Shown one piece after another: positions 1-11,628 of a DNA stretch of 46,881 nt. Numbering within the stretch: the stretch's first letter is position 1; each line of letters begins with the position of its first letter. Position numbers and translations under genes: made by a program. The DNA comes from a virus (Duplodnaviria; Heunggongvirae; Uroviricota; Caudoviricetes), in IMG/VR virus record IMGVR_UViG_3300018065_000012; one strand, written 5' to 3'. Below the pieces are notes generated by a model. That model did not search any database and was not told the origin of the DNA. It worked only from the letters and a program-made list of their open reading frames with translations.

Positions 1-72
1 TTAACTGAAGTGCCTGAACTTGAGGTGGAATACGAGATTCGACCCAAGCGGCGAATCTTGCGCGGGAATTAA
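1..72 (+). CDS. 3' end of an upstream gene (partial, C-terminal 23 codons, stop TAA 70-72)
   Basis: Open frame from position 1 ending ...ILRGN*; a strong SD (AGGAGG, 81-86) for the next gene follows. Confidence 0.3.
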   Translation, partial: LTEVPELEVEYEIRPKRRILRGN

Positions 73-92: not shown

Positions 93-1103
93 TTGACGCG
101 AACCAACAAGGCAGGTGGGTTATTCCTGCCTGCCTTGTTCTATTGGAGAATAACTATGAGTGGCAAAAAAGGTTGTTTGCTTGGCTGGCTTATGGGCAAT
201 GGCGAGACAGGGACGCCAGACATTCCTAATCCGCCATCGCCGCCACCACCATCTGGAACAGGAAATATGAATAAAAAAGCACTCCTTATTGGTATCAATA
301 AATATCAAATGCCCGGAGCGAATCTGAATGGCTGTGTGAATGACGTAAACAATATGTGGGACATACTTGTAAACAAGCAAGGTTTTGAGCCTGATAACAT
401 CCGCATGGTTACAGATGAACGCGCAACCAAGGCAAATATTCTTTCCCGTCTTGAATGGCTTGTAGCTGGTTCGAAGGCTGGTGATTTGCTTATCTTTCAG
501 TATAGCGGACACGGTTCCCAAGTGAGAGATAGGAACGGGGATGAACTGAATGACCACATGGATGAAATACTTTGCCCGACAGATTTGGATTGGGATGACC
601 CACTGACTGATGATATTGTGGCAACTTATTTCAAGCGCATTCCTAAAGGTGCGTTCCTGACGTTCATTTGTGATGCTTGTCACTCTGGGACAATGGATAG
701 GAGTCTCGTTTCTCCCAATAGCAATCCACACCCAACGAAGGAACGTTTCTTGCCACCACCGGCAGACATCTTAGCGCGGTCAAGAGGCAGAGATTTGAAA
801 ACCAAAAAGGTTGGTTGCAGAAGTTTGTTCAAGAGCAATGGAAACGTAACATATTCTGAGCAACGGCATATGCTTCTCTCCGGTTGTCGTGATGATCAAA
901 CAAGCGCCGATGCTTTTATTGATGGAAAGTATCAAGGCGCAATGACGGCAAGCTTGTTGAAGATGTTGAAAACGCACCCAGATGCTTCTTGGGTACGTGT
1001 TCACGAAGAGATGTTGAAGTATTTGTCAGGTAGTTTTTCTCAGGTGCCTCAATTGAGTGGGCCAAAGCCTGAATTGGAAGCAAAACCTTTTTCAAAGAGC
1101 TGA
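93..1103 (+). CDS. Metacaspase-like peptidase (C14 caspase fold) with an N-terminal hydrophobic segment and a Pro-rich linker
   Basis: ORF-track protein has KKALLIGINKY..., the catalytic His in QYSGHGSQ and the catalytic Cys in FICDACHSG, matching the caspase/metacaspase His-Cys dyad. TTG start sits 6 nt after AGGAGG; an alternative ATG is at 156. The N-terminus carries a hydrophobic stretch then PNPPSPPPPSG. Confidence 0.7.
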   Translation: MTRTNKAGGLFLPALFYWRITMSGKKGCLLGWLMGNGETGTPDIPNPPSPPPPSGTGNMNKKALLIGINKYQMPGANLNGCVNDVNNMWDILVNKQGFEPDNIRMVTDERATKANILSRLEWLVAGSKAGDLLIFQYSGHGSQVRDRNGDELNDHMDEILCPTDLDWDDPLTDDIVATYFKRIPKGAFLTFICDACHSGTMDRSLVSPNSNPHPTKERFLPPPADILARSRGRDLKTKKVGCRSLFKSNGNVTYSEQRHMLLSGCRDDQTSADAFIDGKYQGAMTASLLKMLKTHPDASWVRVHEEMLKYLSGSFSQVPQLSGPKPELEAKPFSKS

Positions 1104-1106
1104 AAA

Positions 1107-1481
1107 ATGAATCATGAAGAGATTGCCGAGCGGATAGCAAAAAGCTTTTCTTCTGCAAGTTTCAAAAAGATCATGTATTACGAGAAAGCCCCTCGCGGGT
1201 ATTTCTTTCTTTTGACGTGGCGTTACAATTTGGGGACTACGCCAAAAATAGACGATGTGAAAACTGCTATTGAAAAGATGAAGAAAGATTTTAATACGGA
1301 CTTTGCCAAAGTCAAGAAGTTTGGCGCGTTCAGCGAAACATCATCTTCAGGGCATGCTTTGACGGGTCGCGGCTTGAGGATGGAGTATTCTGTCTCCTCT
1401 ACTTTGTCAATTGAAGAACCGGAAAGAAACAAGATCATTGACCAATTGGAAAAGATGGGCTTTGATTGGGGAAACAAATGA
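1107..1481 (+). CDS. hypothetical protein
   Basis: 124-aa ORF starting 4 nt after the upstream stop; no recognisable motif. Confidence 0.5.
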   Translation: MNHEEIAERIAKSFSSASFKKIMYYEKAPRGYFFLLTWRYNLGTTPKIDDVKTAIEKMKKDFNTDFAKVKKFGAFSETSSSGHALTGRGLRMEYSVSSTLSIEEPERNKIIDQLEKMGFDWGNK

Positions 1482-1618
1482 AAGTAAAACCAGAGCACAA
1501 GTATTTCAAAAACAACGCTCAAGTTGTGAAAAAGACAGCGAATGTCAAACAGGAAGAAGGCGCAGGACAAAAAGTTGGAGCACCTGTCAAAGTCGAAATC
1601 AAAGATGAAAAGGAATAA
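1478..1618 (+). CDS. small Lys-rich hypothetical protein (46 aa)
   Basis: ATG overlaps the upstream TGA (ATGA). The ORF exactly fills the gap to the next gene (stop 1616-1618, next start 1621). It is below the ORF-track size cutoff. Confidence 0.35.
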   Translation: MKVKPEHKYFKNNAQVVKKTANVKQEEGAGQKVGAPVKVEIKDEKE

Positions 1619-1620
1619 CA

Positions 1621-1890
1621 ATGGCGGATAAAAAAAGCTGGTTCAATGTGATCATTGGCGCTTTGGGAACACTTCTTAATTGGTTTTTGCGGAGAAAGCA
1701 GAACCAGCAAGTTGATCAACAACAGGAACAGAACCAGCAGGATGTTCAGAACGAAGAAGGCAAGGTTGATGGAGAGCACCAAGAAATCGACAATGGGCCT
1801 TCAGATGTAACAACGACGCCTGATGGTGGTTTGAACTTTGATGAGTTCAATAAGGGCGAAAATAAAGATGAAAAGGAGAAAGAGAAATGA
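1621..1890 (+). CDS. small membrane protein (N-terminal TM helix, Gln/Glu-rich tail)
   Basis: WFNVIIGALGTLLNWFL hydrophobic helix followed by a QQ/E-rich region. Its stop overlaps the start of the next lipoprotein gene (ATGA). Confidence 0.5.
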   Translation: MADKKSWFNVIIGALGTLLNWFLRRKQNQQVDQQQEQNQQDVQNEEGKVDGEHQEIDNGPSDVTTTPDGGLNFDEFNKGENKDEKEKEK

Positions 1891-2282
1891 GATGGTTAGT
1901 CCTTTTGCTTCCGTTGTTGCTTGTGGGTTGTATTAACGTTAAGGTGGAAATGCCCAAGGAAGTAGAAAAGAAATACGTCTTTGAAAGATACCCGACCTAT
2001 CCGGTTGCTGAAAAACCAAAGCTTGAAAACGTCCGTGGTGCAGAAATGCATCCTTGGAAAGACGCAGCGACGTTTGCCGGTGCAAAATTGAAAGGTGCAG
2101 ACAAAACGAAGTTTGATGAACTTTCAACCAAGGCCAAAACAGATGAAAAAAATGGTCTGAAGAAAATCAAGGATGGCTACGACGGCTTAATCAAGTGGGG
2201 AAAGAAAAACGAAGCGACGGTTAAATCGTATAATGAATTTGCTGAAAAGAAAAACGAACGACTCAAAGACAAGGAGAAATGA
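1887..2282 (+). CDS. putative lipoprotein (lipobox LLVGC)
   Basis: MRWLVLLLPLLLVGC signal peptide with a lipobox, then a Lys-rich mature part. Overlaps the upstream membrane-protein gene (embedded/overlapping arrangement). Confidence 0.55.
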   Translation: MRWLVLLLPLLLVGCINVKVEMPKEVEKKYVFERYPTYPVAEKPKLENVRGAEMHPWKDAATFAGAKLKGADKTKFDELSTKAKTDEKNGLKKIKDGYDGLIKWGKKNEATVKSYNEFAEKKNERLKDKEK

Positions 2283-2283
2283 G

Positions 2284-2502
2284 ATGCGTAAATTGGTGGT
2301 ATTTCTTGCTATTGTTGCAGTAATGATCGTGGGTTGCGGCGAGGTTGAAGAGGTTAAGCCGGAGACGAAACCGGAGCCAACAGTAGAGAAAAAGGCCGAA
2401 GAACCCAAGGCAGAAGAGAAAAAAGAAGAACCCAAAGTAGAACAGCCGAAGGTGGAAAAGAAGGCCGAAGAACCCAAGGCAGAACCCAAGGCAGAAAAAT
2501 AA
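2284..2502 (+). CDS. putative lipoprotein (lipobox MIVGC) with EPKAEEKK repeats
   Basis: ATG at 2284 preceded by AAGGAG. MRKLVVFLAIVAVMIVGC signal/lipobox. C-terminal Pro/Glu/Lys-rich repeats. Confidence 0.5.
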   Translation: MRKLVVFLAIVAVMIVGCGEVEEVKPETKPEPTVEKKAEEPKAEEKKEEPKVEQPKVEKKAEEPKAEPKAEK

Positions 2503-2525: not shown

Positions 2526-2554
2526 TTGAAAGTTTGCCGTCATAAGTGTATAAT
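2526..2554 (+). promoter_or_regulatory. sigma70-like promoter TTGAAA-N17-TATAAT (copy 1 of a repeated promoter motif)
   Basis: TTGAAA 2526-2531, 17-nt spacer, TATAAT 2549-2554. Same architecture at 3639, 33608 and 40655. Confidence 0.6.
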
Positions 2555-2583: not shown

Positions 2584-2658
2584 TTGCGGAGTGGAGAAGT
2601 AGAATCTCGTCTGGCTCATAACCAGAAGGTCGCTGGTGCAATTCCAGCCTCCGCTACC
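2584..2658 (+). tRNA. tRNA-Met(CAU)-like (possibly initiator or Ile2 type); position 1:72 unpaired
   Basis: Cloverleaf by eye: D-stem GAGA/TCTC, anticodon stem TCTGG/CCAGA with loop CUCAUAA, variable AGGTC, T-arm GCTGG-TGCAATT-CCAGC, acceptor GCGGAG/CTCCGC, ends ACCA. The T-loop is non-canonical (G55). Confidence 0.5.
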
Positions 2659-2665
2659 AGACTGA

Positions 2666-2688
2666 CAAGTGGGTTAGTTCCACTTTTT
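2666..2688 (+). terminator. rho-independent terminator-like hairpin (AAGTGG-GTTAGTT-CCACTT + TTTTT)
   Basis: 6-bp stem, 7-nt loop, followed by T5, immediately after the tRNA-Met-like gene. Confidence 0.45.
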
Positions 2689-2689
2689 G

Positions 2690-3062
2690 GTTAGCTCAGT
2701 GCCGATTAATGGCTAAACAGGGAAACCCCGCTGAGCTTTGAAAACAGTTCTCGCTGAAGCCGAAATATCAAAGGGCGCTTTGCGGGACGGGCCTCCGAGA
2801 ACACACGACGCAGTTCTCATGGGAGCCGTGCGAGGACTTAATATTTAAGGTGAGTGAAATGTTTTGTTTTAGATTTGCCGAACAATCTGCCTCGTTACTC
2901 ATGCGAAAGCATGAGCGCGGTATTGCCGCGTCGGGGCGACTTATTTTGTCACCCAGTTTGACAAAACAAGAAGTCGTCCTGAATACGAATGATACCAGTT
3001 GACAAGGTTCGGCGAATGAAGAAAAATGAACGCCGGACCTTGAAAAGTTCGGCGTTTTTTTG
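2690..3062 (+). other. non-coding or structured region of about 370 nt (possible small RNA); an alternative 47-aa ORF lies at 2861-3004
   Basis: No long + ORF. Multiple hairpins: AGCTCAG...CTGAGCT, CTCATGC-GAAA-GCATGAG (GNRA tetraloop), CGCGG-TATTG-CCGCG, TTGTCA...TGACAA. Ends in a strong terminator. An ATG at 2861 with AAGGTGAG SD gives a 47-aa ORF that cannot be excluded. Confidence 0.3.
3030..3062 (+). terminator. rho-independent terminator (AACGCCGGAC...GTTCGGCGTT + T7)
   Basis: GC-rich imperfect inverted repeat followed by TTTTTTT. Confidence 0.6.
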
Positions 3063-3095
3063 TTGGCTAAATATAAAAGGAAGTGGGGGTGCGTC

Positions 3096-3632
3096 ATGAA
3101 GCGGGTTTTACTGCTCGGAAGAAACGGAAGAATCCTTGATGTAGTCTGCTGGAAGGCAGCGATCAATCTGACGTACTTCCGTGGATGCGGAAGGGATGTC
3201 GTGTTCCCGCTTGAATATCATGATGTTGAGGTTCGTTCTCAATATCAGTCTTTCAAGCTTCCGGCGGTTATGATTCTGCTTGGCAACCGTGACCGCTACC
3301 CGAATAGTGACGTGCTTCCGCTGTCCCGTTCAAATGTGTTGCTTCGGGATGAATACACGTGCCAGTACTGCGGAAAGAAATTGTCTTTCACAAGCGGTAC
3401 GATCGACCACGTTTTTCCGCTGTGCAAGGGCGGCACCAATACGTGGAGAAATGTGGTTGCGTGTTGCGAAGACTGTAACAACGAAAAGGATGACTTGAGA
3501 CTGGAACAGTACACGAAGCAGACGGGTAAGAAGCTGAAGAAAAAGCCACGGACTCCAAGCCGTGGGGTGCTGTTCAGGTCTTATGTTGAAAAGGAAGGTT
3601 ACGGCTGTTGGAAACCTTACATCAGCGTGTAA
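3096..3632 (+). CDS. HNH homing endonuclease
   Basis: CQYCGKK ... TIDHVFPLCKGG...N...VACCEDCNNEK: an HNH/zinc-finger nuclease motif. ATG at 3096 with AAGGAAG SD; the ORF-track frame starts at 3060. Confidence 0.8.
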   Translation: MKRVLLLGRNGRILDVVCWKAAINLTYFRGCGRDVVFPLEYHDVEVRSQYQSFKLPAVMILLGNRDRYPNSDVLPLSRSNVLLRDEYTCQYCGKKLSFTSGTIDHVFPLCKGGTNTWRNVVACCEDCNNEKDDLRLEQYTKQTGKKLKKKPRTPSRGVLFRSYVEKEGYGCWKPYISV

Positions 3633-3638
3633 TTTTCC

Positions 3639-3667
3639 TTGAAAATGTTCTTTGACAATTGTATAAC
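3639..3667 (+). promoter_or_regulatory. sigma70-like promoter TTGAAA-N17-TATAAC (copy 2), upstream of tRNA cluster 1
   Basis: TTGAAA 3639-3644, 17-nt spacer, TATAAC 3662-3667. Same motif family as 2526. Confidence 0.55.
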
Positions 3668-3680
3668 GTAATAGCGGAAT

Positions 3681-3757
3681 TGGAGCTGTAGCTCAACTGG
3701 TCAGAGTATCGGACTGTCGATCCGAGGGTTGCGGGTTCGAGTCCCGTCAGCTCCGCC
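3681..3757 (+). tRNA. tRNA-Asp(GUC)
   Basis: Acceptor GGAGCTG/CAGCTCC, D GCTC/GAGT, anticodon stem TCGGA/TCCGA loop CUGUCGA, T-arm GCGGG-TTCGAGT-CCCGT, discriminator G, CCA. Confidence 0.8.
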
Positions 3758-3765
3758 AGATGACA

Positions 3766-3793
3766 ACGCAGTGGGGAATTCCCCACTGCTTTT
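3766..3793 (+). promoter_or_regulatory. inter-tRNA hairpin CAGTGGGG-AATT-CCCCACTG followed by CTTTTGG (processing or terminator-like)
   Basis: Perfect 8-bp stem with a 4-nt loop between two tRNA genes. Confidence 0.4.
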
Positions 3794-3869
3794 GGGCGGT
3801 TAGTTCAGTTGGTAGAACGCATGGATCACAACCATGAGGTCACTGGTTCAAGTCCAGTACCGCCCACCA
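3794..3869 (+). tRNA. tRNA-Val(CAC)
   Basis: Acceptor GGGCGGT/ACCGCCC, D GTTC/GAAC, anticodon stem CATGG/CCATG loop AUCACAA, T-arm ACTGG-TTCAAGT-CCAGT, A73, CCA. Anchored to ORF-track ATG 3834. Confidence 0.8.
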
Positions 3870-3877
3870 GAAACAAA

Positions 3878-3954
3878 CGGAAGGTTAAGGTATTTGATTC
3901 CGAGTCCTTGGTTGAATTATATGCGTTATGCGCCAGCTTTGGGTTGGCCTTCCG
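3878..3954 (+). other. 77-nt element enclosed by a perfect 7-bp helix CGGAAGG/CCTTCCG (structured RNA or degenerate tRNA-like)
   Basis: tRNA-sized unit with an acceptor-like closing helix, but the interior does not fold into a canonical cloverleaf. Confidence 0.25.
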
Positions 3955-3964
3955 TGAATAAAAT

Positions 3965-4036
3965 CCAGCACGCTTCAGTGATGGGATACTTCTCCATTTT
4001 AGGAAAAAAAGCAACCTGTCGCGTTTTTTGGTGCTG
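3965..4036 (+). ncRNA. Bracketed tRNA-array element A (minimal copy of the module-bracketed family)
   Basis: 5' module CCAGCAC-GCTTCAGTG...GATACTTC, 3' module GCGTTTTTTGGTGCTGG. Terminal helix CCAGCAC/GTGCTGG. No tRNA-like insert. Confidence 0.55.
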
Positions 4037-4041
4037 GTTTA

Positions 4042-4117
4042 TGGCCCTGTGATGTAATTGGAAACATGTCAGGTTTTCAGCCTGATTTTTGGGGTTCGAG
4101 TCCCCACAGGGTCACCA
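4042..4117 (+). tRNA. tRNA-Glu(UUC)
   Basis: Acceptor GGCCCTG/CAGGGTC (G2-U71), D ATGT/ACAT, anticodon stem TCAGG/CCTGA loop UUUUCAG, T-arm TGGGG-TTCGAGT-CCCCA, A73, CCA. Confidence 0.8.
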
Positions 4118-4127
4118 AAAAATAATT

Positions 4128-4261
4128 CCAGTACGCTTCAGTGAAGAGATACTTCGACTTGTAATCGAGAGGTTGCGGGTTCGAGTCCCGTCGGTTTGCT
4201 TCGGCAAACTGTAGCTCAATTGGCAGAGCGCTAAATACCTCTTTGCGTTTTTTGGTACTGG
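4128..4261 (+). ncRNA. Bracketed element B carrying a circularly permuted tRNA-Thr(UGU)-like core
   Basis: Order in DNA: 5' module, anticodon arm TTCGA-CUUGUAA-TCGAG, variable AGGTT, T-arm GCGGG-TTCGAGT-CCCGT, acceptor 3' strand CGGTTTG, then C-TTCG-G cap, acceptor 5' strand CAAACTG, TA, D-arm GCTC-AATTGGCA-GAGC, G26, 3' module. The D-arm, anticodon loop and variable loop are identical to the genuine tRNA-Thr(UGU) at 12586. Confidence 0.55.
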
Positions 4262-4269
4262 AATTTTTC

Positions 4270-4346
4270 GGGGATGAAGACGAAGTGGACGAGTCACTGC
4301 CCTGTCACGGCAGAGTAAGCGGGTTCAAGTCCCGTCATTCCCGCCA
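4270..4346 (+). tRNA. tRNA-Asp(GUC), second divergent copy
   Basis: Acceptor GGGGATG/CATTCCC (G4-U69), 3-bp D-stem, anticodon stem CTGCC/GGCAG loop CUGUCAC, T-arm GCGGG-TTCAAGT-CCCGT, G73, CCA. Confidence 0.7.
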
Positions 4347-4355
4347 AGTTTACGT

Positions 4356-4430
4356 TCCGGCGTGGCCCAACGGTAGGGCAGCTGGCTGTTAACCAGTTCA
4401 TTGGAAGTTCGACTCTTCCCGCCGGAGCCA
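4356..4430 (+). tRNA. tRNA-Asn(GUU)
   Basis: Acceptor TCCGGCG/CGCCGGA, D GCCC/GGGC, anticodon stem GCTGG/CCAGT loop CUGUUAA, T-arm GGAAG-TTCGACT-CTTCC, G73, CCA. Confidence 0.8.
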
Positions 4431-4433
4431 TTT

Positions 4434-4520
4434 GCGCAAGTGCTGGAACAGGTAGACAGGCCAGTTTGAGGGACTGGTGTCCGAAAGGGCGTGGGAGTTC
4501 GAATCTCCCCTTGCGCACCA
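4434..4520 (+). tRNA. tRNA-Leu(GAG), class II
   Basis: Acceptor GCGCAAG/CTTGCGC, anticodon stem CCAGT/ACTGG loop UUGAGGG, long variable arm TGTCCGAAAGGGCGT, T-arm GGGAG-TTCGAAT-CTCCC, A73, CCA. Confidence 0.8.
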
Positions 4521-4628
4521 AATAATTTTTTGATAAAGTGCAATAGGAAAGGAGAAACAACAAATGCTTGATCTCACTTGTACCAAAGGGGGTCTGCCAT
4601 GTTAGAGCCTTAACGAAAGGAGCTAAAC

Positions 4629-5018
4629 ATGAGCAGAACCTTCAAGAAGTACCCACGGCACTGGTATAGGCGTCCAAGCGGACGTAAGAGAGCGCTGGTG
4701 AATGGGGTAAGGAAACGGGCTGTGCCTCCCGACCCTTACGATGATATTCACCCCGACAGACAGTGCTTTAGTGCAGACAAAGTTGGTTTGGAGTTGCACA
4801 AGTTGGGATGGAGCAACGAAAAGATTGCCAAGCGTTTGAGTTGGAGATTCAAAGTTCCTTACTTGGTGATTTGGCACAGCATTATCCCCGACAAACCGTT
4901 TGATTGGTGGTGGTCTTGCAAGTGTAAGGAATGCAATGAAAAATACCAAGCTTGGCGGGAGTGGCGCGGAGGAATGCGTCTTTATTCTTGGGATGAGTTG
5001 GCAGTGGAACGCGGCTGA
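4629..5018 (+). CDS. hypothetical protein (basic N-terminus, Trp/Cys-rich)
   Basis: ATG with AAAGGAG SD; 129 aa; no motif recognised. Confidence 0.5.
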   Translation: MSRTFKKYPRHWYRRPSGRKRALVNGVRKRAVPPDPYDDIHPDRQCFSADKVGLELHKLGWSNEKIAKRLSWRFKVPYLVIWHSIIPDKPFDWWWSCKCKECNEKYQAWREWRGGMRLYSWDELAVERG

Positions 5019-5036
5019 GACAAGGAAGAATAGCGG

Positions 5037-5119
5037 TGTGACGAAACTGGTAAACGTGCATGGCTTAGAACCATGTGCCCTTTGTGGGCTTGAGGGTTCG
5101 ACTCCCTTCACCGCTACCA
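5037..5119 (+). tRNA. tRNA-Leu(UAG), class II
   Basis: Acceptor AGCGGTG/CACCGCT, anticodon stem CATGG/CCATG loop CUUAGAA, variable arm TGCCCTTTGTGGGCT, T-arm GAGGG-TTCGACT-CCCTT, A73, CCA. Confidence 0.8.
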
Positions 5120-5135
5120 TTTGAGGAAAGAGCAA

Positions 5136-5894
5136 ATGACAGATATCATTGTTCTGACTCACAACAAGGAAGAGAAAACCTGTCGTTGTTTTGAATCCAT
5201 TGCGTTGAATACAAAAAATTATCGGGTGCTTTGGGTTGACAATGGCTCAGAAGAAGCAAGCATTCAAAAGGTTTTGCCGTTTGCTGAAAAGCTTGAAAAC
5301 TTTCGCTTGATGCGCAACAAGGAAAATGAAGGGTTTTCAAAAGGGGTCAATTGCGCCTTGCGTCTTTTCTTGTTTGACGGATTATCTGATCACCTTATCT
5401 TGCTGAACAATGACGTTGTTGTGACGAAAGGTTGGCTTGATCATTTGATTGCTGCGATGAAGAAATCAGGTTTGGATGCAATTGGCCCAGTGACATCAGA
5501 CAATTGTCAACAAAGCCTTGAAGCATTACGGCCTCAATTGAGTAGAAAATTGCCGGAGTTCACGGACGAAACGACAGAGGAAAAAGCGAGAATATTATAT
5601 GAGGACGCAGGTAGTGCAGTTTATCCGGTGACTTCAATCTTGACTTTTTTCTGTGTGTTGTTTCGCAGGGAAACGGTTGAACAAATCGGGTTGCTTGATG
5701 AAAACATTTTCGCCTACGGTGAAGATAACGATTATTGTGAGCGAATGAAACGCACGGGGAAGAAAATGGGATTAGCTGTTGGAATTTACGTTGAGCATGA
5801 TCACGGCGCAACGGCTCAGTTGTTTGGAGACAGCTGGAAAGAGAAACAAATGAAAAAGGCTTCGGCGTATATCCAGCAGAAATATAATCTTTAG
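5136..5894 (+). CDS. Family 2 glycosyltransferase (GT-A fold)
   Basis: IIVLTHN...VDNGS...LLNNDVVV... and YGEDNDYCERM (DxD/ED motifs typical of GT2). ATG 5136 with GAGGAAAG SD; the ORF-track frame opens at TTG 5121. Confidence 0.7.
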   Translation: MTDIIVLTHNKEEKTCRCFESIALNTKNYRVLWVDNGSEEASIQKVLPFAEKLENFRLMRNKENEGFSKGVNCALRLFLFDGLSDHLILLNNDVVVTKGWLDHLIAAMKKSGLDAIGPVTSDNCQQSLEALRPQLSRKLPEFTDETTEEKARILYEDAGSAVYPVTSILTFFCVLFRRETVEQIGLLDENIFAYGEDNDYCERMKRTGKKMGLAVGIYVEHDHGATAQLFGDSWKEKQMKKASAYIQQKYNL

Positions 5895-5981
5895 GCGTTG
5901 TGGTGAAACTGGCAGACACGCATGATTCAGGGTCATGTTCCCTTTTTGGGAGTGAGGGTTCGACTCCCTCCAACGCCACCA
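5894..5981 (+). tRNA. tRNA-Leu(CAG), class II
   Basis: Acceptor GGCGTTG/CAACGCC, anticodon stem CATGA/TCATG loop UUCAGGG, variable arm TTCCCTTTTTGGGAG, T-arm GAGGG-TTCGACT-CCCTC, A73, CCA. The first G overlaps the upstream stop codon. Confidence 0.8.
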
Positions 5982-5983
5982 TC

Positions 5984-6058
5984 GGCCCTATGGAGTAATC
6001 GGAAACTCACCAGATTCTCAGTCTGGAATTCAGGGTTCGAGTCCCTGTAGGGTCACCA
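5984..6058 (+). tRNA. tRNA-Glu(CUC)
   Basis: Acceptor GGCCCTA/TAGGGTC, D GAGT/ACTC, anticodon stem CCAGA/TCTGG loop UUCUCAG, T-arm CAGGG-TTCGAGT-CCCTG, A73, CCA. Confidence 0.8.
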
Positions 6059-6089
6059 GCTTCGGATTATGAATTGCTTAAAAGATAAA

Positions 6090-6166
6090 GGGCGATTAGC
6101 TCAGCTGGACAGAGCACTTGCTCGACAAGCAAGGGGTCAGTGGTTCGAGTCCACTATCGCCCACCA
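6090..6166 (+). tRNA. tRNA-Val(GAC)
   Basis: Acceptor GGGCGAT/ATCGCCC, D GCTC/GAGC, anticodon stem CTTGC/GCAAG loop UCGACAA (C33 is unusual), T-arm AGTGG-TTCGAGT-CCACT, A73, CCA. Anchored to ORF-track frames 6069/6118. Confidence 0.75.
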
Positions 6167-6177
6167 TTGTAGGAATC

Positions 6178-6255
6178 GGACGCGTAGCTCAGATTGGTCA
6201 GAGCACTTCTCTTACAAGGAAGGGGTCACAGGTTCGAGTCCTGTCGCGTCCACCA
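6178..6255 (+). tRNA. tRNA-Val(UAC)
   Basis: Acceptor GGACGCG/CGCGTCC, D GCTC/GAGC, anticodon stem CTTCT/GGAAG loop CUUACAA, T-arm ACAGG-TTCGAGT-CCTGT, A73, CCA. Confidence 0.8.
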
Positions 6256-6273
6256 AATGAAAGGCGGTGGAAA

Positions 6274-6507
6274 ATGGAAAACAAGGCGCTACCAAAGATC
6301 AAACTACGGGCCGTAAAAGAACCACAAAAAGAAAAGGCTCCAAAGAACACGTATTTGCTCACCATGCGCTTTCCAATCACCGCACTTGACGATGTTGAAG
6401 CGCGCGAACGTGCTTGGAAGCATATGAAGTTTCATAACTTTGTTAAGCTTGATGCAAAGCTTCAACGTGTTCGTGACAAGAAGGCACCGGAGAAAGTAAA
6501 TCTATGA
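6274..6507 (+). CDS. hypothetical protein (77 aa, Lys-rich)
   Basis: ATG 6274 after the tRNA. The ORF-track entry 6118-6507 begins inside tRNA genes, so the shorter start was chosen. Confidence 0.45.
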   Translation: MENKALPKIKLRAVKEPQKEKAPKNTYLLTMRFPITALDDVEARERAWKHMKFHNFVKLDAKLQRVRDKKAPEKVNL

Positions 6508-6932
6508 TTACAGTGACGTGTAATGGCTGTTTTGACGGGTTGCATCCCGGCCACTTGTTTTATCTTGGTTATTGTCGAGCGCAAGGTGACCGTTTGGTCG
6601 TTGGGATCAATTCCGATGAATACATAGCCAACAAGAAAAGAACAAAGCCGTATTTTGATGCTAAGCAACGTAAAGAAGTATTGCTGGCGCTCAACATTGC
6701 TGAAGATGTAATTGTGTTTGATGAACCGAATCCAAACGAATTCATCCGTAAGGTTCATCCGCAAGTGCATTGTACGGGTGAAGAATACGGCTATGAATGT
6801 GCTGAGTCAGTAATTTGTAATGAGCTTGGAATCAAATTGGTATTGGTTCCAAGAACGGCAATATGGTCAACGGGAAGTTTACCGTTGATTGGAATGAAAT
6901 GGGTTGCTGATTTTATGAATAGCGGAAAATGA
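6504..6932 (+). CDS. Nucleotidyltransferase of the HldE/RfaE domain II type (heptose-1-phosphate adenylyltransferase-like or cytidylyltransferase)
   Basis: VTCNGCFDGLHPGHLFYL is the HxGH nucleotidyltransferase signature as in RfaE/HldE and TagD. ATGA overlap with the upstream gene. Confidence 0.7.
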   Translation: MITVTCNGCFDGLHPGHLFYLGYCRAQGDRLVVGINSDEYIANKKRTKPYFDAKQRKEVLLALNIAEDVIVFDEPNPNEFIRKVHPQVHCTGEEYGYECAESVICNELGIKLVLVPRTAIWSTGSLPLIGMKWVADFMNSGK

Positions 6933-6946
6933 ACGTGGAGGGGAAA

Positions 6947-7306
6947 ATGGGCAAAAACTCGCAAGATAAAGGTGATTTGAGCAAGGTTATGATCATAGGT
7001 GCCTTGATGAAGAAAGACAAAAAGGTACTTGATACAATTGGAGAAAATCACAGATTTGATCTTGCGTTTTATGAAGAAGGGACAAGATGTTTCAAAACGG
7101 TTCAATGCAAAACAGGACAGTACAAAAACGGTTGCGTGATTTTTCCTACTTGTAGTGTTGTCAAGAATTCCAAAACTGGAAAACACGAAAGAAGGACTTA
7201 TAAAGGTCAAGTGGACTTTTTTTGGAGTGTATTGTCAAAAGAAAGAAAAGTGTTATCTTGTCCCGGAGAAAATTGCCGGTCAATCTTACACGTACTTAAG
7301 AGTTGA
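6947..7306 (+). CDS. hypothetical protein
   Basis: ATG 6947 with GGAGGGG SD (ORF-track frame from 6929); ends at 7306. Confidence 0.45.
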   Translation: MGKNSQDKGDLSKVMIIGALMKKDKKVLDTIGENHRFDLAFYEEGTRCFKTVQCKTGQYKNGCVIFPTCSVVKNSKTGKHERRTYKGQVDFFWSVLSKERKVLSCPGENCRSILHVLKS

Positions 7307-7363
7307 AAAACCAAAAGTCAAATGCAACAGGATAAACCGAGCTGAAGATTATGAATTATAATC

Positions 7364-7455
7364 GGGGGGATGGCTGAGCGGCTTAAAGCGCACGGTTGCT
7401 AACCGTGTGGGCGTTAGTAGCGTCTCGTGGGTTCGAATCCCACTCCCCCCGCCAT
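7364..7455 (+). tRNA. tRNA-Ser(GCU), class II
   Basis: Acceptor GGGGGGA/TCCCCCC, anticodon stem CACGG/CCGTG loop UUGCUAA, long variable arm, T-arm GTGGG-TTCGAAT-CCCAC, G73, CCA. Confidence 0.8.
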
Positions 7456-7460
7456 TCAAG

Positions 7461-7521
7461 GAGGGCTAAACCAGTGAGGTGTTAAAGCCTCCGCAGGTTC
7501 GAATCCTGTCCCCTCCGCCAC
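7461..7521 (+). pseudogene. 61-nt tRNA-like mini-element (acceptor helix, T-arm and CCA, but no D-arm)
   Basis: GGAGGG(C)...GCAGG-TTCGAAT-CCTGT-CCCCTCC-G-CCA. Interior has a GAGG-UGUUAAAG-CCUC hairpin. Too short for a tRNA. Confidence 0.3.
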
Positions 7522-7542
7522 TTTCAAAGAAAGGAGACAAGT

Positions 7543-7698
7543 GTGTCAGATGCCAAAAAGTCTCGCAAACTGGAACGCATCAAAAGGCGCATGGAAAACG
7601 TCGTTGACGACTGCGAATCGCTTTTGAAGATTTGCAATGGCGACTTGCGCATGAAAGAATTGCGGGACAAAGCACTTGAGTTTTACAAGCTTATTTAA
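7543..7698 (+). CDS. small helical hypothetical protein (51 aa)
   Basis: GTG start 5-6 nt after AAAGGAGA. ...SRKLERIKRRMENVVDDCESLLKICNGDLRMKELRDKALEFYKLI*. The stop abuts tRNA-Ser(UGA). Confidence 0.35.
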   Translation: MSDAKKSRKLERIKRRMENVVDDCESLLKICNGDLRMKELRDKALEFYKLI

Positions 7699-7789
7699 GG
7701 AAGGTTGGCAGAGTGGTTGAATGCGCTGGTTTTGAAAACCAGTGGGCGTCAAAAACGTCTCATGGGTTCGAATCCCATACCTTCCTCCA
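7699..7789 (+). tRNA. tRNA-Ser(UGA), class II
   Basis: Acceptor GGAAGGT/ACCTTCC, anticodon stem CTGGT/ACCAG loop UUUGAAA, long variable arm, T-arm ATGGG-TTCGAAT-CCCAT, U73, CCA. Anchored to ORF-track TTG 7705. Confidence 0.8.
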
Positions 7790-7803
7790 TATATGAAATT
7801 GAT

Positions 7804-7944
7804 ATGAGACAAAACTTGACTTTGACTGACCGGATTTGTATTGTTGTCTTTGTATCGTTGATGATTCTGATGCAACCATTATGGGTTGCGTTGAGAATTC
7901 TTCAATGGTTGATCCGGTTTTGGAAACCTGACTTTCATTGGTAA
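7804..7944 (+). CDS. small hydrophobic protein (46 aa, single TM helix)
   Basis: MRQNLTLTDRICIVVFVSLMILMQPLWVALRILQWLIRFWKPDFHW; in frame with ORF-track entry 7705-7944, starting after the tRNA. Confidence 0.4.
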   Translation: MRQNLTLTDRICIVVFVSLMILMQPLWVALRILQWLIRFWKPDFHW

Positions 7945-7947
7945 TGT

Positions 7948-8024
7948 GTGCCCGTGGCTCAAATGGATAGAGCACCTGACTACGGATCAGGAGGTTGTAG
8001 GTTCGAGTCCTACCGGGCATGCCA
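7948..8024 (+). tRNA. tRNA-Arg(ACG)
   Basis: Acceptor GTGCCCG/CGGGCAT, D GCTC/GAGC, anticodon stem CCTGA/TCAGG loop CUACGGA, T-arm GTAGG-TTCGAGT-CCTAC, G73, CCA. Confidence 0.8.
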
Positions 8025-8041
8025 ACTCAAAGGAATTGCAA

Positions 8042-8122
8042 ATGAAATTCTTTGATGGAACATGGGGATGTTTGATTTGGATTGTTTTGATAGGCGGTTT
8101 ACTGGTTTACTACTTGGCCTGA
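8042..8122 (+). CDS. tiny hydrophobic ORF (26 aa)
   Basis: AAAGGAA SD then ATG. MKFFDGTWGCLIWIVLIGGLLVYYLA*. Confidence 0.25.
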   Translation: MKFFDGTWGCLIWIVLIGGLLVYYLA

Positions 8123-8134
8123 TTGGAATTCTAT

Positions 8135-8211
8135 GGTGAGAGTAGCTCAGATGGTAGAGCGTCTGGTTGTGGTCCAGAAAGTCGCGGGTTCAAGTCCCGT
8201 CTCTCACCCCA
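8135..8211 (+). tRNA. tRNA-His(GUG) with genomically encoded G-1
   Basis: G-1 pairs with C73. Acceptor GTGAGAG/CTCTCAC, D GCTC/GAGC, anticodon stem TCTGG/CCAGA loop UUGUGGU, T-arm GCGGG-TTCAAGT-CCCGT, CCA. Confidence 0.8.
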
Positions 8212-8232
8212 ATATCAACGAAAGGATGAAAT

Positions 8233-8430
8233 TTGAAATGGATAATCTTAATCCTGTTCATGTATATGATAATTGCTATGATATTTTTTCTGCATGAATG
8301 TTCTAAAATACAAAAGCATGTTCCGCCAAAACGTCTTCGACACTGTTCGGTTTACAGGACGCTTCAATGGTTTGAAGCAATTGTTCGAAGCGTTTTATGG
8401 CCGGTTGTGTTGATATTGAATATCTTTTAG
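8233..8430 (+). CDS. hypothetical small membrane protein (65 aa, TTG start)
   Basis: ORF-track frame. Strongly hydrophobic N-terminus (WIILILFMYMIIAMIFFL). Confidence 0.3.
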   Translation: MKWIILILFMYMIIAMIFFLHECSKIQKHVPPKRLRHCSVYRTLQWFEAIVRSVLWPVVLILNIF

Positions 8431-8520
8431 GAAGGGTGGCTGAGCGGCTTAAGGCACTGGTTTCGAAAACCAGCGGACGCCAAAAGCGTCCCGTGGGTTC
8501 AAATCCCATCCCTTCCTCCA
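8430..8520 (+). tRNA. tRNA-Ser(CGA), class II
   Basis: Acceptor GGAAGGG/CCCTTCC, anticodon stem CTGGT/ACCAG loop UUCGAAA, long variable arm, T-arm GTGGG-TTCAAAT-CCCAT, U73, CCA. Confidence 0.8.
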
Positions 8521-8536
8521 TTGTAGGGAACAATCG

Positions 8537-8683
8537 ATGTTCGCTTGGTTTAAGAAATTGTTTTGTAAGAAAGAGGAAGCGCCAGAAGTAGTGGGCTTGA
8601 AAAAGTTTGAGCATCACGCTGAAATCACACTTGAATATAGCGATGGCAAAAGGGTAACACTTTGCGTTCGCAAAGGAGAATAA
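8537..8683 (+). CDS. small hypothetical protein (48 aa)
   Basis: ATG 8537. MFAWFKKLFCKKEEAPEVVGLKKFEHHAEITLEYSDGKRVTLCVRKGE*. Confidence 0.35.
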   Translation: MFAWFKKLFCKKEEAPEVVGLKKFEHHAEITLEYSDGKRVTLCVRKGE

Positions 8684-8758
8684 TCATGGATCATTCAGTT
8701 ACTTCCCGGAGCGGCGAAAGCACGATGGGGCGCAGGCCGCGTGAACCGGGAGGGATTT

Positions 8759-9016
8759 ATGAATCCAGAACGTCGGAGAAAAGGGTTGCTGAAGGTTTGG
8801 AAACTGATGCGGATTTGGCGTAATTATCATGATGGCGATAAAGAATACGCCAATGATGGGTTGATTGCGCAAGGGCATGAGAAAAACCGGAAGCCGTGCT
8901 CTTGTATGATGTGTTGCAATCGTCGCCGTTCAGGTTTTAGTAAGGGAAAAGAAAAGCTTACAAGACAGGAGCGAAAATCAGAAAACAGTTTCAAGGATCA
9001 ACTGGATGAATTGTAG
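8759..9016 (+). CDS. hypothetical basic protein with a Cys cluster (85 aa)
   Basis: ATG 8759 after GGGAGGG (ORF-track frame from 8741). CSCMMCC motif. An alternative out-of-frame 45-aa ORF at 8686-8823 with AAAGGAG SD overlaps it. Confidence 0.45.
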   Translation: MNPERRRKGLLKVWKLMRIWRNYHDGDKEYANDGLIAQGHEKNRKPCSCMMCCNRRRSGFSKGKEKLTRQERKSENSFKDQLDEL

Positions 9017-9104
9017 AGGGGTGTGGTAATTGGTAGCCAGCTGGTTTGGAACACCAGTGTGCCCTAATAAGGCATTGCGGGTTCAAATCCCGTCCCCTCT
9101 GCCA
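9015..9104 (+). tRNA. tRNA-Ser(GGA), class II
   Basis: Acceptor AGAGGGG/CCCCTCT, D TGGT/GCCA, anticodon stem CTGGT/ACCAG loop UUGGAAC, long variable arm, T-arm GCGGG-TTCAAAT-CCCGT, G73, CCA. Confidence 0.75.
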
Positions 9105-9118
9105 CTTTTGAACGATGC

Positions 9119-9194
9119 TGAGGGATAGCTCAATTGGTAGAGCACTTGGCTCTGGTCCAAGCGGTTGCAGGTTCGAATCCTGTTCCCTCTGCCA
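9119..9194 (+). tRNA. tRNA-Gln(CUG) (U1/U72 unpaired, G73)
   Basis: Acceptor TGAGGGA/TCCCTCT, D GCTC/GAGC, anticodon stem CTTGG/CCAAG loop CUCUGGU, T-arm GCAGG-TTCGAAT-CCTGT. Confidence 0.75.
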
Positions 9195-9199
9195 TTTTA

Positions 9200-9274
9200 T
9201 GGCCCGTAGTATAATTGGCAATACACAAGGTTTTGGTCCTTGTATTCCACGTTCGAGTCGTGGCGGGCCAGCCA
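9200..9274 (+). tRNA. tRNA-Gln(UUG) (U1-A72, G73)
   Basis: Acceptor TGGCCCG/CGGGCCA, D GTAT/ATAC, anticodon stem CAAGG/CCTTG loop UUUUGGU, T-arm CCACG-TTCGAGT-CGTGG, CCA. Confidence 0.8.
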
Positions 9275-9276
9275 AC

Positions 9277-9354
9277 GGGACGGTAGCTCAATTTGGTTAG
9301 AGCATCTGCCTTTTAAGCAGGAGGTTGTGGGTTCGAGTCCCACCCGTCTCACCA
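9277..9354 (+). tRNA. tRNA-Lys(UUU)
   Basis: Acceptor GGGACGG/CCGTCTC, D GCTC/GAGC, anticodon stem TCTGC/GCAGG loop CUUUUAA, T-arm GTGGG-TTCGAGT-CCCAC, A73, CCA. Anchored to ORF-track TTG 9325. Confidence 0.8.
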
Positions 9355-9372
9355 ATCTTGAAAGGAGGAACA

Positions 9373-10317
9373 TTGAAGTTTTTTGTAACAGGCGTCTATG
9401 GATTCATCGGCAGTTGCTTTGCAAGAATGTTGATTGAAGAAACTAATCACACGGTTGTTGGTTTTGGCCGGAACACTGATCAAAGAAATAAAGGCCGAAT
9501 CAAAAGCATTATCAGCAGTGAACGTTTCAACCTTATCAATGGCGACCTTGCTGGGGATATAAGTGGATTGCTTGAAGGCGTTGACGTTGTAGTTCATTTT
9601 GCGGCAAAGACTTTTGTGGACCATTCAGTGAAAGACCCTGAACCGTTTGTCCGCAGCAATATTATTGGCAGTTATCAACTTTTGGAACAAGCACGGATTT
9701 ACAAGCCCAAACGCTTCATTCACATTTCAACGGATGAAGTGTATGGCGCGTGTTTAGAAGGGTCTTACAGTGAGGATTCTCCGCTGAATCCGACAAATCC
9801 ATATTCAGCGACAAAAGCAGCTGCGGACGTTTTGGCAACAGGCTACTTTCATACGTACGGGGTGAACGTTATTATCACTCGCACTGAAAACAATGTTGGT
9901 CCGTTCCAGCACCCGCAAAAGGTTCTCCCGACGTTTGTAAGGAAAGCATTGGCTGGTGAGTTGTTGCCGGTTTACGGGGATGGAAAGCACGTAAGACAAT
10001 GGCTTCACGTAAAAGACCATTGCTATGCCGTTTTGCTTTTGATTGAAAAAGGACAGATTGGAGACATTTATCATATTGCTGGCTCAAAGGAATTGCAAAA
10101 CATCGAGTTGGCAAAAATGGTTTTGAAAATCTTGAAAAAGCCGGAAGACGCTTTTGAGTTTATTCCGGACAATGAGATTCGGCCCAATCATGACCGGCGT
10201 TATGCGATTGATTCATCCAAGCTTCGAGCGTTGGGTTGGGAACCAAAGTTTGATCGTGATGAAACCATTCGCAAAACGGTTGAATGGTACGTTAAAAATC
10301 AAAACTGGTTGGTGTAA
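9373..10317 (+). CDS. NDP-sugar 4,6-dehydratase (dTDP-glucose 4,6-dehydratase/RfbB-like, extended SDR)
   Basis: KFFVTGVYGFIGS Rossmann motif, YSATKAAAD (YxxxK), VRQWLHVKDHC. Start chosen at TTG 9373 after AAAGGAGG. The ORF-track frame (9325) opens inside tRNA-Lys. Confidence 0.75.
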   Translation: MKFFVTGVYGFIGSCFARMLIEETNHTVVGFGRNTDQRNKGRIKSIISSERFNLINGDLAGDISGLLEGVDVVVHFAAKTFVDHSVKDPEPFVRSNIIGSYQLLEQARIYKPKRFIHISTDEVYGACLEGSYSEDSPLNPTNPYSATKAAADVLATGYFHTYGVNVIITRTENNVGPFQHPQKVLPTFVRKALAGELLPVYGDGKHVRQWLHVKDHCYAVLLLIEKGQIGDIYHIAGSKELQNIELAKMVLKILKKPEDAFEFIPDNEIRPNHDRRYAIDSSKLRALGWEPKFDRDETIRKTVEWYVKNQNWLV

Positions 10318-10322
10318 ATTAT

Positions 10323-10399
10323 GGACGTATAGCTCAGTTGGTTAGAGCACTCGCCTGATAAGTGAGAGGCCGCTGGTTCGAATCCAGCTACGTCCACCA
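10323..10399 (+). tRNA. tRNA-Ile(GAU)
   Basis: Acceptor GGACGTA/TACGTCC, D GCTC/GAGC, anticodon stem CTCGC/GTGAG loop CUGAUAA, T-arm GCTGG-TTCGAAT-CCAGC, A73, CCA. Confidence 0.8.
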
Positions 10400-10603
10400 A
10401 CTTTATTTGCTCTCATAGGAAGGTCAGGACACCACTGCTGAAGGTAGGAGACAATTGTCGCTCGCACTACTGAGGGTGCAACACAAATAGGCTCCGTTTG
10501 GACTGGGTGAGCAGCAGGAAGGAGCGGGTTGTGGCAAAGATGAATGACAGATTGGAAAACAAAATCCTGCCTACTGTAGAATCTGTCGATGAGAGCATTT
10601 TGT

Positions 10604-10681
10604 GGGTGCGTAGCAAACATTGGTTTTGCAGCGGACTCTTAATCCGTCTTAATGTGGGTTCGATTCCCACCGCACCTACCA
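10604..10681 (+). tRNA. tRNA-Lys(CUU)
   Basis: Acceptor GGGTGCG/CGCACCT, D GCAA/TTGC, anticodon stem GCGGA/TCCGT loop CUCUUAA, T-arm GTGGG-TTCGATT-CCCAC, A73, CCA. Anchored to ORF-track 10498 frame. Confidence 0.75.
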
Positions 10682-10686
10682 ACTTT

Positions 10687-10762
10687 GCTCCCGTAGCTCA
10701 GCTGGACAGAGCGGGACTTTCCTAAAGTTCAGGTCGCAGGTTCGAATCCTGCCGGGAGTACC
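10687..10762 (+). tRNA. tRNA-Arg(CCU)
   Basis: Acceptor GCTCCCG/CGGGAGT, D GCTC/GAGC, anticodon stem GGACT/AGTTC loop UUCCUAA, T-arm GCAGG-TTCGAAT-CCTGC, A73, CCA. Confidence 0.8.
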
Positions 10763-10765
10763 AAA

Positions 10766-11188
10766 ATGATGATTGAAGAAAAACATAAAGACCTTTTTAC
10801 AGTGAGTGATGATTATCACCTTGCTCATTGTATCGCTACTGACATGAGAATGGGCGCTGGAATTGCGTTGCCAATGCAAAAGAAATTTAGATTGAGGGCG
10901 AAAATAAGAAACAGCAACGAATCCATATTGAGTCCAACTTGTATTTTGACTGGTCGCGTTTTCAATTTGATTACAAAACGGCGCAGCAGCGGAAAGCCGA
11001 CCTATCAATCGCTTCAAGCAAGCTTAGTAAAGATGCGTGAAATCATAGAACAAAAAGGCGTTACAAAACTTGCAATGCCAAAAATTGGTTGTGGCCTTGA
11101 TCGTCTTAATTGGGCCGTTGTGCGTCAAATGCTTGAAGATATTTTTTATGGTTTGGAGATCGAAATACTGGTTTGCGTTTGGAAATGA
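10766..11188 (+). CDS. Macro domain protein (ADP-ribose binding or processing)
   Basis: HLAHCIATDMRMGAGIA ... VTKLAMPKIGCGLDRLNW match conserved macro-domain motifs. Confidence 0.6.
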   Translation: MMIEEKHKDLFTVSDDYHLAHCIATDMRMGAGIALPMQKKFRLRAKIRNSNESILSPTCILTGRVFNLITKRRSSGKPTYQSLQASLVKMREIIEQKGVTKLAMPKIGCGLDRLNWAVVRQMLEDIFYGLEIEILVCVWK

Positions 11189-11191
11189 AAT

Positions 11192-11267: not shown

Positions 11268-11272
11268 CTTGT

Positions 11273-11349: not shown

Positions 11350-11363
11350 ACTTGGAGAACAAA

Positions 11364-11623: not shown

Positions 11624-11628
11624 ATTTT

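Follow-up and report, generated by a model that had tools for sequence, protein, structure and literature searches.

The 46.9-kb window analysed here (IMG/VR record IMGVR_UViG_3300018065_000012) is part of the genome of an uncultured huge phage. A six-gene operon near its beginning (positions 156-2502) opens with a gene whose product, by its sequence and predicted fold, is a complete type I metacaspase (C14B), with the p10 region straight after the p20 region and no type II linker. Comparison with cellular homologues shows phage METACASPASES to be set apart by an added N-terminal anchor and a flexible linker. A link to lysis is the best-supported functional lead, and we tentatively favour, at a little short of an even chance, an accessory lysis protease that would be membrane-tethered and Ca2+-gated. 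The protein family itself is well known; new are an anchoring that is specific to phages and the recurrent placement of the gene within lysis cassettes. In the literature searched, including the text of a huge-phage survey (PMC7162821), we found neither feature described, and nothing relevant on phage or viral metacaspases or on caspase-like lysis-cassette proteins.

The metacaspase and its catalytic residues

The Pfam family Peptidase_C14 (PF00656) matched the protein with E = 3.5e-32 (112 bits against a cut-off of 21.4). The best matches among solved structures were yeast Yca1 (4f6o, E = 4.3e-41) and the Candida glabrata metacaspase (MCA; 7qp0, E = 1.5e-40), followed by weaker ones to T. brucei MCA2, Arabidopsis MC4 and MC9, and Geobacter GSU0716. 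The Candida MCA was matched in a single HMMER stretch (residues 39-305) that covers both p20 and p10, and the alignment with the type II enzymes AtMC4 and AtMC9 was confined to p20. His119 and Cys175 aligned with the catalytic dyad of Yca1 and Candida MCA, and the p10 motif SGCRDDQTSADA aligned to Yca1 as a second domain (E = 7.6e-11). For an AlphaFold model built with 56 homologues (predicted local distance difference test, pLDDT, 82.7), the top 29 PDB matches returned by Foldseek were metacaspases without exception (29/29). An earlier note, made from the letters of this DNA, had proposed a metacaspase-like protease with an intact His/Cys dyad, to be given up if the C14 fold found no support or the dyad did not align; the Pfam match, the alignment with Yca1 and Candida MCA and the predicted fold all bear the proposal out. 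Classification as an orthocaspase or metacaspase-like protein, that is, with p20 only (definition in PMC5756287), was rejected because p10 is present.

The domain plan, p20 plus p10 with no long linker, is that of Yca1/Mca1 (4f6o), C. glabrata MCA (7qp0) and TbMCA2 (4af8). Shared with type I metacaspases are the YSGHG and D-x-CHSG motifs, an acidic S1 pocket, a four-Asp Ca2+ site, the SGCxDxQTSADA motif of p10, a Pro-rich N-terminal stretch and ~40% identity in p20. Unlike these enzymes, the protein is encoded by a phage and has no Q/N-rich or zinc-finger prodomain, its clade has a short membrane anchor, and its role is presumably not in stress, aggregate clearance or death of its own cell.

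In TbMCA2, the S1 pocket is formed by Cys92, Asp95, Ser156 and Asp211 and the allosteric Ca2+ site by Asp173, 189, 190 and 220 (PMC4357240). The S1-pocket equivalents C60, D63, S117 and D173, mapped from motif register and chain offsets without a printed TbMCA2 alignment, are present in the window protein and invariant in 56/56 clade members, as is the His/Cys dyad (56/56). All four Asp residues of the Ca2+ site (D136, D152, D153 and D181) are found in the window protein; across the clade, Asp occupies these positions in 37/56, 56/56, 47/56 and 24/56 members, respectively. We predict a specificity for Arg/Lys and an intact Ca2+ site, and the enzyme is apparently active. Type I and III metacaspases require Ca2+, for which they have micromolar and millimolar sites, and are inactive in its absence; upon activation they can shed their N-terminal domain (PMC5756287). 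A Lys or Arg lies at most six residues upstream of the caspase domain in 55/56 relatives, which is not diagnostic, as cellular homologues also begin with MAKK.

A 74%-identical metacaspase of a related phage (locus L011, 6450-8594; also L144 and L174; P0030) is split by an intein (Intein_splicing and HNH_3; CFSGDT...VFVHN, followed by S) inserted directly after the catalytic-His motif YSGHG. An active-site intein is unusual in a protease, and its presence there speaks for the importance of the gene to the phage.

The identical metacaspase gene is found on 9 public metagenomic contigs, the longest of 338 kb, and no near match to the window exists among 50,697 deposited phage genomes. The earlier note had called such proteases uncommon in phages. 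This holds for deposited genomes, in which a metacaspase was matched in 1 of the 50,697 records, and for PHROGs, where no metacaspase family was found, but not for uncultured phage contigs, which yielded 53 IMG/VR loci. The loci compared here comprise these 53, another 38 from metagenomes and several long contigs. The metacaspase of the GenBank huge phage LR745208 (39% identity) has neither an anchor nor lysis neighbours and is uninformative.

N-terminal anchors in phage and cellular relatives

Scanning bacteria at one genome per species gave 556 metacaspase relatives. The best 80 of the 556, from Desulfobacterota, Nitrospira, Burkholderiales, Terrabacter and others, are 42-50% identical to the phage protein across its entire catalytic unit. 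Many of these 80 lie on megabase-scale chromosomal contigs, and nearly all begin at the caspase domain itself (MAKKALLVGI), with no anchor or linker. Such chromosomal type I metacaspases are the likely donors of the phage gene.

Scripted classification of 114 of the 120 closest homologues listed gave 36 with a transmembrane (TM) anchor, 54 with an amphipathic one, 19 with a short or absent N-terminal extension (some of which are probably truncated gene calls) and 5 others, the window protein being one of these 5. The amphipathic anchors follow a consensus like xIIxFFKKLFG, and each anchor is then followed by a Pro/acidic linker. The FF(K/R)xLFG N-termini may resemble the membrane-targeting sequence of MinD. 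In the TM-anchored homologues (n = 37), Lys and Arg average 0.05 before the TM segment and 3.8 in the 12 residues after it, a pattern present in 36/37; by the positive-inside rule, this points to an N-out/C-in topology with the catalytic domain in the cytoplasm. On these comparisons, the anchor is an addition specific to the phages that has been re-invented repeatedly. A secreted or signal-anchor-release (SAR)-type protease was rejected on the same charge topology. In one phage locus (L042, 7998-8843), the metacaspase has no N-terminal anchor and carries a C-terminal TM tail, LGYYILGGVGILLLILFVYGLFIA, instead.

The start of the window protein at ATG 156 (315 aa) is the one found in the gene calls of 9/9 public contigs with the identical gene. 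The hydrophobic N-terminal segment described in the earlier note corresponds to a start at TTG 93 with the leader GGLFLPALFYW, which was rejected on the public gene calls and a conserved hairpin: the leader is not protein, because it reads through this 14-bp GC-rich hairpin, whose RNA it translates. The hairpin folds at -32.6 kcal/mol (z = -3.7), and a scan returned a terminator-like match at 113-135. Equivalent hairpins that differ in sequence with compensatory changes lie in L011 (~6461-6495, z = -4.9) and in a second related locus, L008 (~5955-6005, z = -4.0). The element could be a terminator or attenuator separating metacaspase expression from the upstream gene. The real N-terminus, MSGKKGCLLGWLMG, reaches a maximum Kyte-Doolittle-19 value of 1.0, and no signal peptide, TM segment, lipobox or hydrophobic segment of at least 15 residues was found in the corrected N-terminus MSGKKGCLLGWLMGNG, so that the secretion suggested earlier finds no support for the window protein or, by topology, for its TM-bearing homologues. 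The PNPPSPPPPSG stretch described in the earlier note is real and follows the N-terminus. Judged from its residues, the window protein's anchor is the weakest version within the phage clade.

Lysis genes near phage metacaspases and the proposed role

In the related loci, genes were called and TM segments and lipoboxes assigned by simple scripts (lipobox and Kyte-Doolittle). Clustered at 70% identity, the metacaspases form 47 lineages, and in 7/47 the gene is directly adjacent to one for a peptidoglycan hydrolase, with five hydrolase families represented. Where endolysin and metacaspase genes adjoin, their stop and start codons usually overlap. The orders found are Amidase_2, metacaspase, lipoprotein and a 2-TM 61-aa protein (L019); a 2-TM 107-aa protein, metacaspase and GH108 (L039); a 3-TM 117-aa holin-like protein, GH25 and metacaspase (L042); Phage_lysozyme, metacaspase and lipoprotein, with a 2-TM protein further downstream (L148, L157); Amidase_2, metacaspase and a 3-TM protein, ahead of large open reading frames (ORFs) judged by eye to be terminase- or portal-like (L176); phrog_465 endolysin and metacaspase (L023, L146, L149, L150, L151); and metacaspase followed by a PG_binding_1 protein (L152-154), the seventh lineage, which is counted on this neighbour, a hydrolase domain not having been identified in it. 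Within lineages, one endolysin type replaces another (Amidase_2 versus phrog_465, Phage_lysozyme versus phrog_465) around a constant set of metacaspase, lipoprotein and 2-TM protein, which means that the metacaspase behaves as a member of the module. By a rough estimate (1-2 endolysin genes per several hundred), chance would account for endolysin adjacency in well under one lineage.

Exported neighbours are also enriched. Lipoprotein genes make up 11/213 genes within 1.5 kb of the metacaspase versus 2/378 beyond 3 kb (Fisher P = 4e-4), and in three clades exported proteins of 150-185 aa, mutually non-homologous, are encoded directly beside it. For these, namely the 180-aa lipoprotein encoded upstream of the window's metacaspase (lpp180), a 147-160-aa lipoprotein and a 171-185-aa signal-peptide protein, hhalign found similarity only in the signal peptides. 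The last is a conserved protein of the TM-anchored clade that carries a Sec-type signal peptide and matched no Pfam family; it is encoded directly upstream of the metacaspase (L012 3128-3664, L182 6481-6996, L183 6441-6998, L185 6344-6877) and preceded by an HNH endonuclease gene.

In the window, the metacaspase gene is followed by those for two small soluble proteins (p124 and p46), a helix protein (p89) and two lipoproteins (lpp131 and lpp72; Table 1). The lysis reading is extended to this locus because of the analogy with the relatives and the envelope-directed neighbours. Free Ca2+ in the bacterial cytoplasm is low, in the sub-micromolar range. The metacaspase would sit as an inactive zymogen on the inner membrane, facing the cytoplasm; when infection ends and the holin breaches the membrane, Ca2+ would enter and switch the protease on. 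It might then cut after Lys/Arg in a lysis regulator or the holin tail, giving positive feedback. Alternative substrates could be periplasmic, Lys/Arg-rich proteins that tether the outer membrane to the wall, reached once the protease has released itself through the lesion. The lipoproteins and the helix protein encoded nearby would be envelope-side partners in the same module. A bolder version, in which anchored metacaspases would form a recurrent new class of lysis-cassette protein, Ca2+-fired zymogens possibly cut by themselves in the linker and severing regulators or outer-membrane-to-wall tethers, seems to us rather unlikely; within it, tether-cutting would be a proteolytic counterpart of mycobacteriophage LysB or a spanin substitute.

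Known systems offer partial parallels. The lysis cassette of the jumbo phage phiKZ has a fifth, cytoplasmic regulator, gp143, that acts on the cytoplasmic domain of the holin (PMC12894885), a precedent for what a protease at the membrane face, encoded beside holin and endolysin genes, could do. gp143 is, however, a non-homologous non-protease, and no holin was identified in the window. With SAR endolysins, the proposed enzyme would share the principle that a lytic enzyme stays inactive at the inner membrane for as long as that membrane is intact. SAR endolysins, however, are N-in/C-out periplasmic enzymes released and activated on depolarisation, whereas the phage metacaspases would be N-out/C-in proteases with a proposed Ca2+ trigger. 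To our knowledge, the lysis scheme of phages of Gram-negative bacteria comprises holins, endolysins, spanins or disruptins and a few regulators, and no protease. If true, our proposal would add a proteolytic step to phage lysis, link 'cell-death proteases' to virus-induced bacterial cell death, give a testable function to metacaspases, whose bacterial roles are largely obscure, and point to a possible source of new lytic enzymes. Even without the lysis link, the gain of an anchor by a captured host protease would be a clean example of domain-level repurposing.

Several observations weigh against a role in lysis. Endolysin adjacency occurs in only ~15% of lineages, and the adjacency and lipoprotein counts are not phylogenetically independent. 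The TM-anchored clade has its GH108 endolysin 5-6 kb from the metacaspase, and other neighbours are AAA ATPase, gp32/RecA and tail-fibre-like (Laminin_G_3) genes. The N-terminal patch of the window protein has 8 hydrophobic residues and is weakly amphipathic (hydrophobic moment, muH, 0.19); the membrane tether suggested in the earlier note holds for the family, with 36 TM and 54 amphipathic anchors among the 114 classed, and is weak for the window protein itself. From -10 kb to +46 kb, no endolysin or holin was recognised by Pfam, in ten further ORFs or by jackhmmer with seven endolysin seeds, in a scan that was not exhaustive. Lysis genes may be scattered, as in T4. The lysis or spanin-like cassette of the earlier note accordingly finds no endolysin or holin close by and shows part of the spanin features, while the endolysin adjacency in 7/47 related lineages speaks for it.

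The main alternative is a host-takeover or counter-defence protease, captured from CHAT-linked cell-death systems and serving to destroy or forestall host defence or other host proteins at the membrane, with the lipoproteins unrelated to it; we find this explanation rather unlikely. The closest cellular homologues do adjoin large CHAT proteins, a CHAT-domain gene lying downstream of the metacaspase in 25/40 long bacterial loci, and most phage lineages place the gene away from lysis genes. Prokaryotic caspase homologues are also known to cleave other proteins, such as an antitoxin in the case of MaOC1 (PMC7935541). A takeover protease would leave unexplained the translationally coupled adjacency to five endolysin families, the swapping of endolysins and the enrichment of exported neighbours. 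Moreover, no CHAT, gasdermin, STAND ATPase or known defence gene stands beside the metacaspase in the window or the phage loci examined, although a gasdermin fold was not searched for structurally. A protease for virion or prohead maturation, which the tail-fibre-like (Laminin_G_3) genes near the metacaspase of some relatives might suggest, is highly improbable given the membrane anchor, the position outside head modules, the variable contexts and the lack of similarity to prohead-protease families.

The remaining alternatives concern the neighbours. The lipoproteins and the helix protein could be morons, such as lipoproteins for superinfection exclusion or envelope modification of the Cor or Llp kind, or form a separate spanin pair, in either case mere neighbours of the metacaspase; we consider this unlikely. 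It would fit a region flanked by nrdDG and a tRNA array, of the kind in which accessory genes typically lie, as well as partners with homologues in the two closest lineages only, the tiny lpp131 family and the weak resemblance that lpp72 bears in PHROGs to entries for Cor and Rz-like spanins (E = 0.003-0.013), although these matches are driven by, and span little beyond, the signal peptides. The operon-like packing with its two ATGA overlaps, the order lpp180-metacaspase-p46-p89-lpp131, kept down to 58% metacaspase identity, and the non-homologous exported proteins flanking the metacaspase in three separate clades argue for a connection. Likewise unlikely is a classical two-component spanin in which p89 pairs with lpp131 (or with lpp72) as the outer-membrane-disrupting part of a split lysis system. 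As in lambda Rz/Rz1 and T4 PseT.3/PseT.2, a helix gene precedes a lipoprotein gene with a 4-nt overlap, and the lpp131 gene, with its lipobox LVGC, starts inside the p89 stop like that of an o-spanin. This arrangement is kept in L008 and L011. The sizes are suitable, p89 and lpp131 together having 220 aa, within the typical limit of at most 250 aa (PMC6139136), and lpp72 is small and Pro-rich like Rz1. In contrast to two-component spanins, the supposed transmembrane domain (TMD) is not kept as such, that of the L011 p89 holding E, K, K and D as in an amphipathic helix, and the RRK right after the p89 helix speaks for C-in. The tail of p89 is a short, acidic stretch of low complexity rather than a coiled coil, and no adjoining holin or endolysin was found. 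Cys is absent from the p89 tail and from mature lpp131 and lpp72, whereas 507/528 known spanin pairs have at least one periplasmic Cys and 21/528 have none (PMC6139136).

In the bacterial loci (L087, L094, L102 and 22 more, at ~6900-12500), the metacaspase is followed by a CHAT-domain protein of 1000-1860 aa that also contains LCAT/alpha-beta-hydrolase (lipase-like), DUF7379 and TPR-S domains, with Terrabacter, Nitrospira and others as hosts. This conserved partner of ~1000-1800 aa, absent from the phage loci, distinguishes the cellular enzymes from the phage ones, and the pair looks like a conserved two-protease operon of a conflict or cell-death system. In a Desulfonema limicola metagenome-assembled genome (L092, 3360-4400), a metacaspase whose gene follows one for a 626-aa P-loop ATPase carries a PG_binding_1 domain (E = 3e-15) fused to its C-terminus, another tie between metacaspase and peptidoglycan, in a cellular context.

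The operon and its genomic surroundings

Table 1 Features at the metacaspase locus of the window.
Feature	Position	Strand	Remarks
lpp180, 3' end of gene	1..72	+	Last 23 codons and TAA; 180-aa lipoprotein, signal MRTVLVVAFLISSVLMIG before C in the full contig
Hairpin	104..135	+	GC-rich, 14 bp, terminator-like or RNA-stability element; between lpp180 and metacaspase genes
Metacaspase	156..1103	+	Type I, 315 aa; from Pfam, structure matches, public gene calls and predicted fold
Basic/hydrophobic patch	156..200		N-terminal
Pro-rich linker	225..257		PNPPSPPPPSG
His119 codon	510..512		p20, YSGHG
Cys175 codon	678..680		p20, DACHSG
p10 motif	Ser codon from 879		SGCRDDQTSADA, residues 242-253
p124	1107..1481	+	124 aa, soluble; stop overlaps p46 start (ATGA 1478-1481)
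p46	1478..1618	+	46 aa, basic; beside the metacaspase in L008 and L011 too
p89	1621..1890	+	89 aa; weakly hydrophobic/amphipathic N-terminal helix SWFNVIIGALGTLLNWFL, RRK, Q/E/D-rich tail
lpp131	1887..2282	+	131 aa; lipobox LVG before C (MRWLVLLLPLLLVG before C); start overlaps p89 stop (ATGA 1887-1890)
lpp72	2284..2502	+	72 aa; lipobox IVG before C (MRKLVVFLAIVAVMIVG before C); 1 nt after lpp131 (TGA g ATG)
Promoter	2526..2554	+	Sigma-70-like, near-consensus (TTGAAA-17-TATAAT); ahead of first tRNA-Met (2585)

The six genes are separated by 3, -4, 2, -4 and 1 nt. The earlier note had described four, having missed p124 and p46; its two lipobox proteins are both present, but the overlap it had placed between them is that of p89 and lpp131, a second ATGA joining p124 and p46, and the last lipoprotein has 72 rather than 73 aa. 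The complete lpp180 gene is found on an identical contig (L001, 9375-9917), and homologues occupy the same position in L008 (37% identity) and L011 (66%). Homologues of lpp180, p46, p89 and lpp131 are found with the metacaspase in just two lineages, the nearest ones, L008 (metacaspase 58% identical) and L011/L144/L174 (74%); an lpp72 homologue joins them in one case, as a 63-aa counterpart in L011.

p124 matched no Pfam or PHROG family and, among 5.8 billion proteins, only itself. Its single-sequence model was unstable, one of five AlphaFold 2 models being confident (pLDDT 77). The idea of a hidden endolysin was rejected, p124 having no family match, no homologue and no significant fold match (E at least 0.026).

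The earlier note had read p89 as a type-II-like membrane protein. A hydrophobic segment is indeed there in the window, uncharged and weak (Kyte-Doolittle 1.37), while the type II assignment is insecure, as the homologues are charged: the counterparts in the two p89 homologues, SWLSFAFEILKKLIDWFF and GFLSWLWDLLQWLVSVF, contain 2-4 charged residues (muH ~0.5). The polar or charged positions 4, 8, 11, 12 and 15 form one helical face, and the segment is closer to a conserved amphipathic helix that seeks the membrane than to a classical TMD. The tail contains a conserved motif, PDGGLNFDEF. A weak match to the 'holin' phrog_4237 (E = 9.6e-5) covers the helix only, and the p89 tail is acidic rather than basic.

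lpp131 comes from a small, dedicated family, with 22 relatives among 1.84 billion representatives by full HMMER search (2 by word index), in which the lipobox, VYERYPxYP and WGKKNxAT..SYNxYA are conserved. Mature lpp72 has 54 aa with E/K/P-rich repeats, 15% Pro and no Cys.

On the public contigs, the anaerobic ribonucleotide reductase genes nrdD/nrdG precede the metacaspase gene. In the relative L008 (1-4753), the nrdD upstream of the metacaspase is split into NRDD-matching pieces of 955 and 198 aa with a 562-aa gene without Pfam match between them, probably a further intein or homing-endonuclease insertion. On the other side of the operon, the promoter marks its end and the start of the tRNA array. 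The 47 tRNA genes of the window lie on the + strand without exception and form two arrays (2585-13244 and 33892-39571) interspersed with small ORFs; nearly every amino acid is represented, with several isoacceptors each. Amid these tRNA genes lie a pyruvoyl-dependent arginine decarboxylase (11687-12289, E = 7e-32) and a weakly matched Macro-domain protein (10766-11188).

The window also encodes glycosyltransferases and a nucleotide-sugar epimerase, as well as two sets of tandem paralogues: five or six proteins of ~254 aa with an Mtd-second-domain/tail-fibre PHROG signature (21886-26499) and three right-handed beta-helix proteins of 411-412 aa (26820-30569). Both arrays look like diversified receptor-binding or depolymerase modules.

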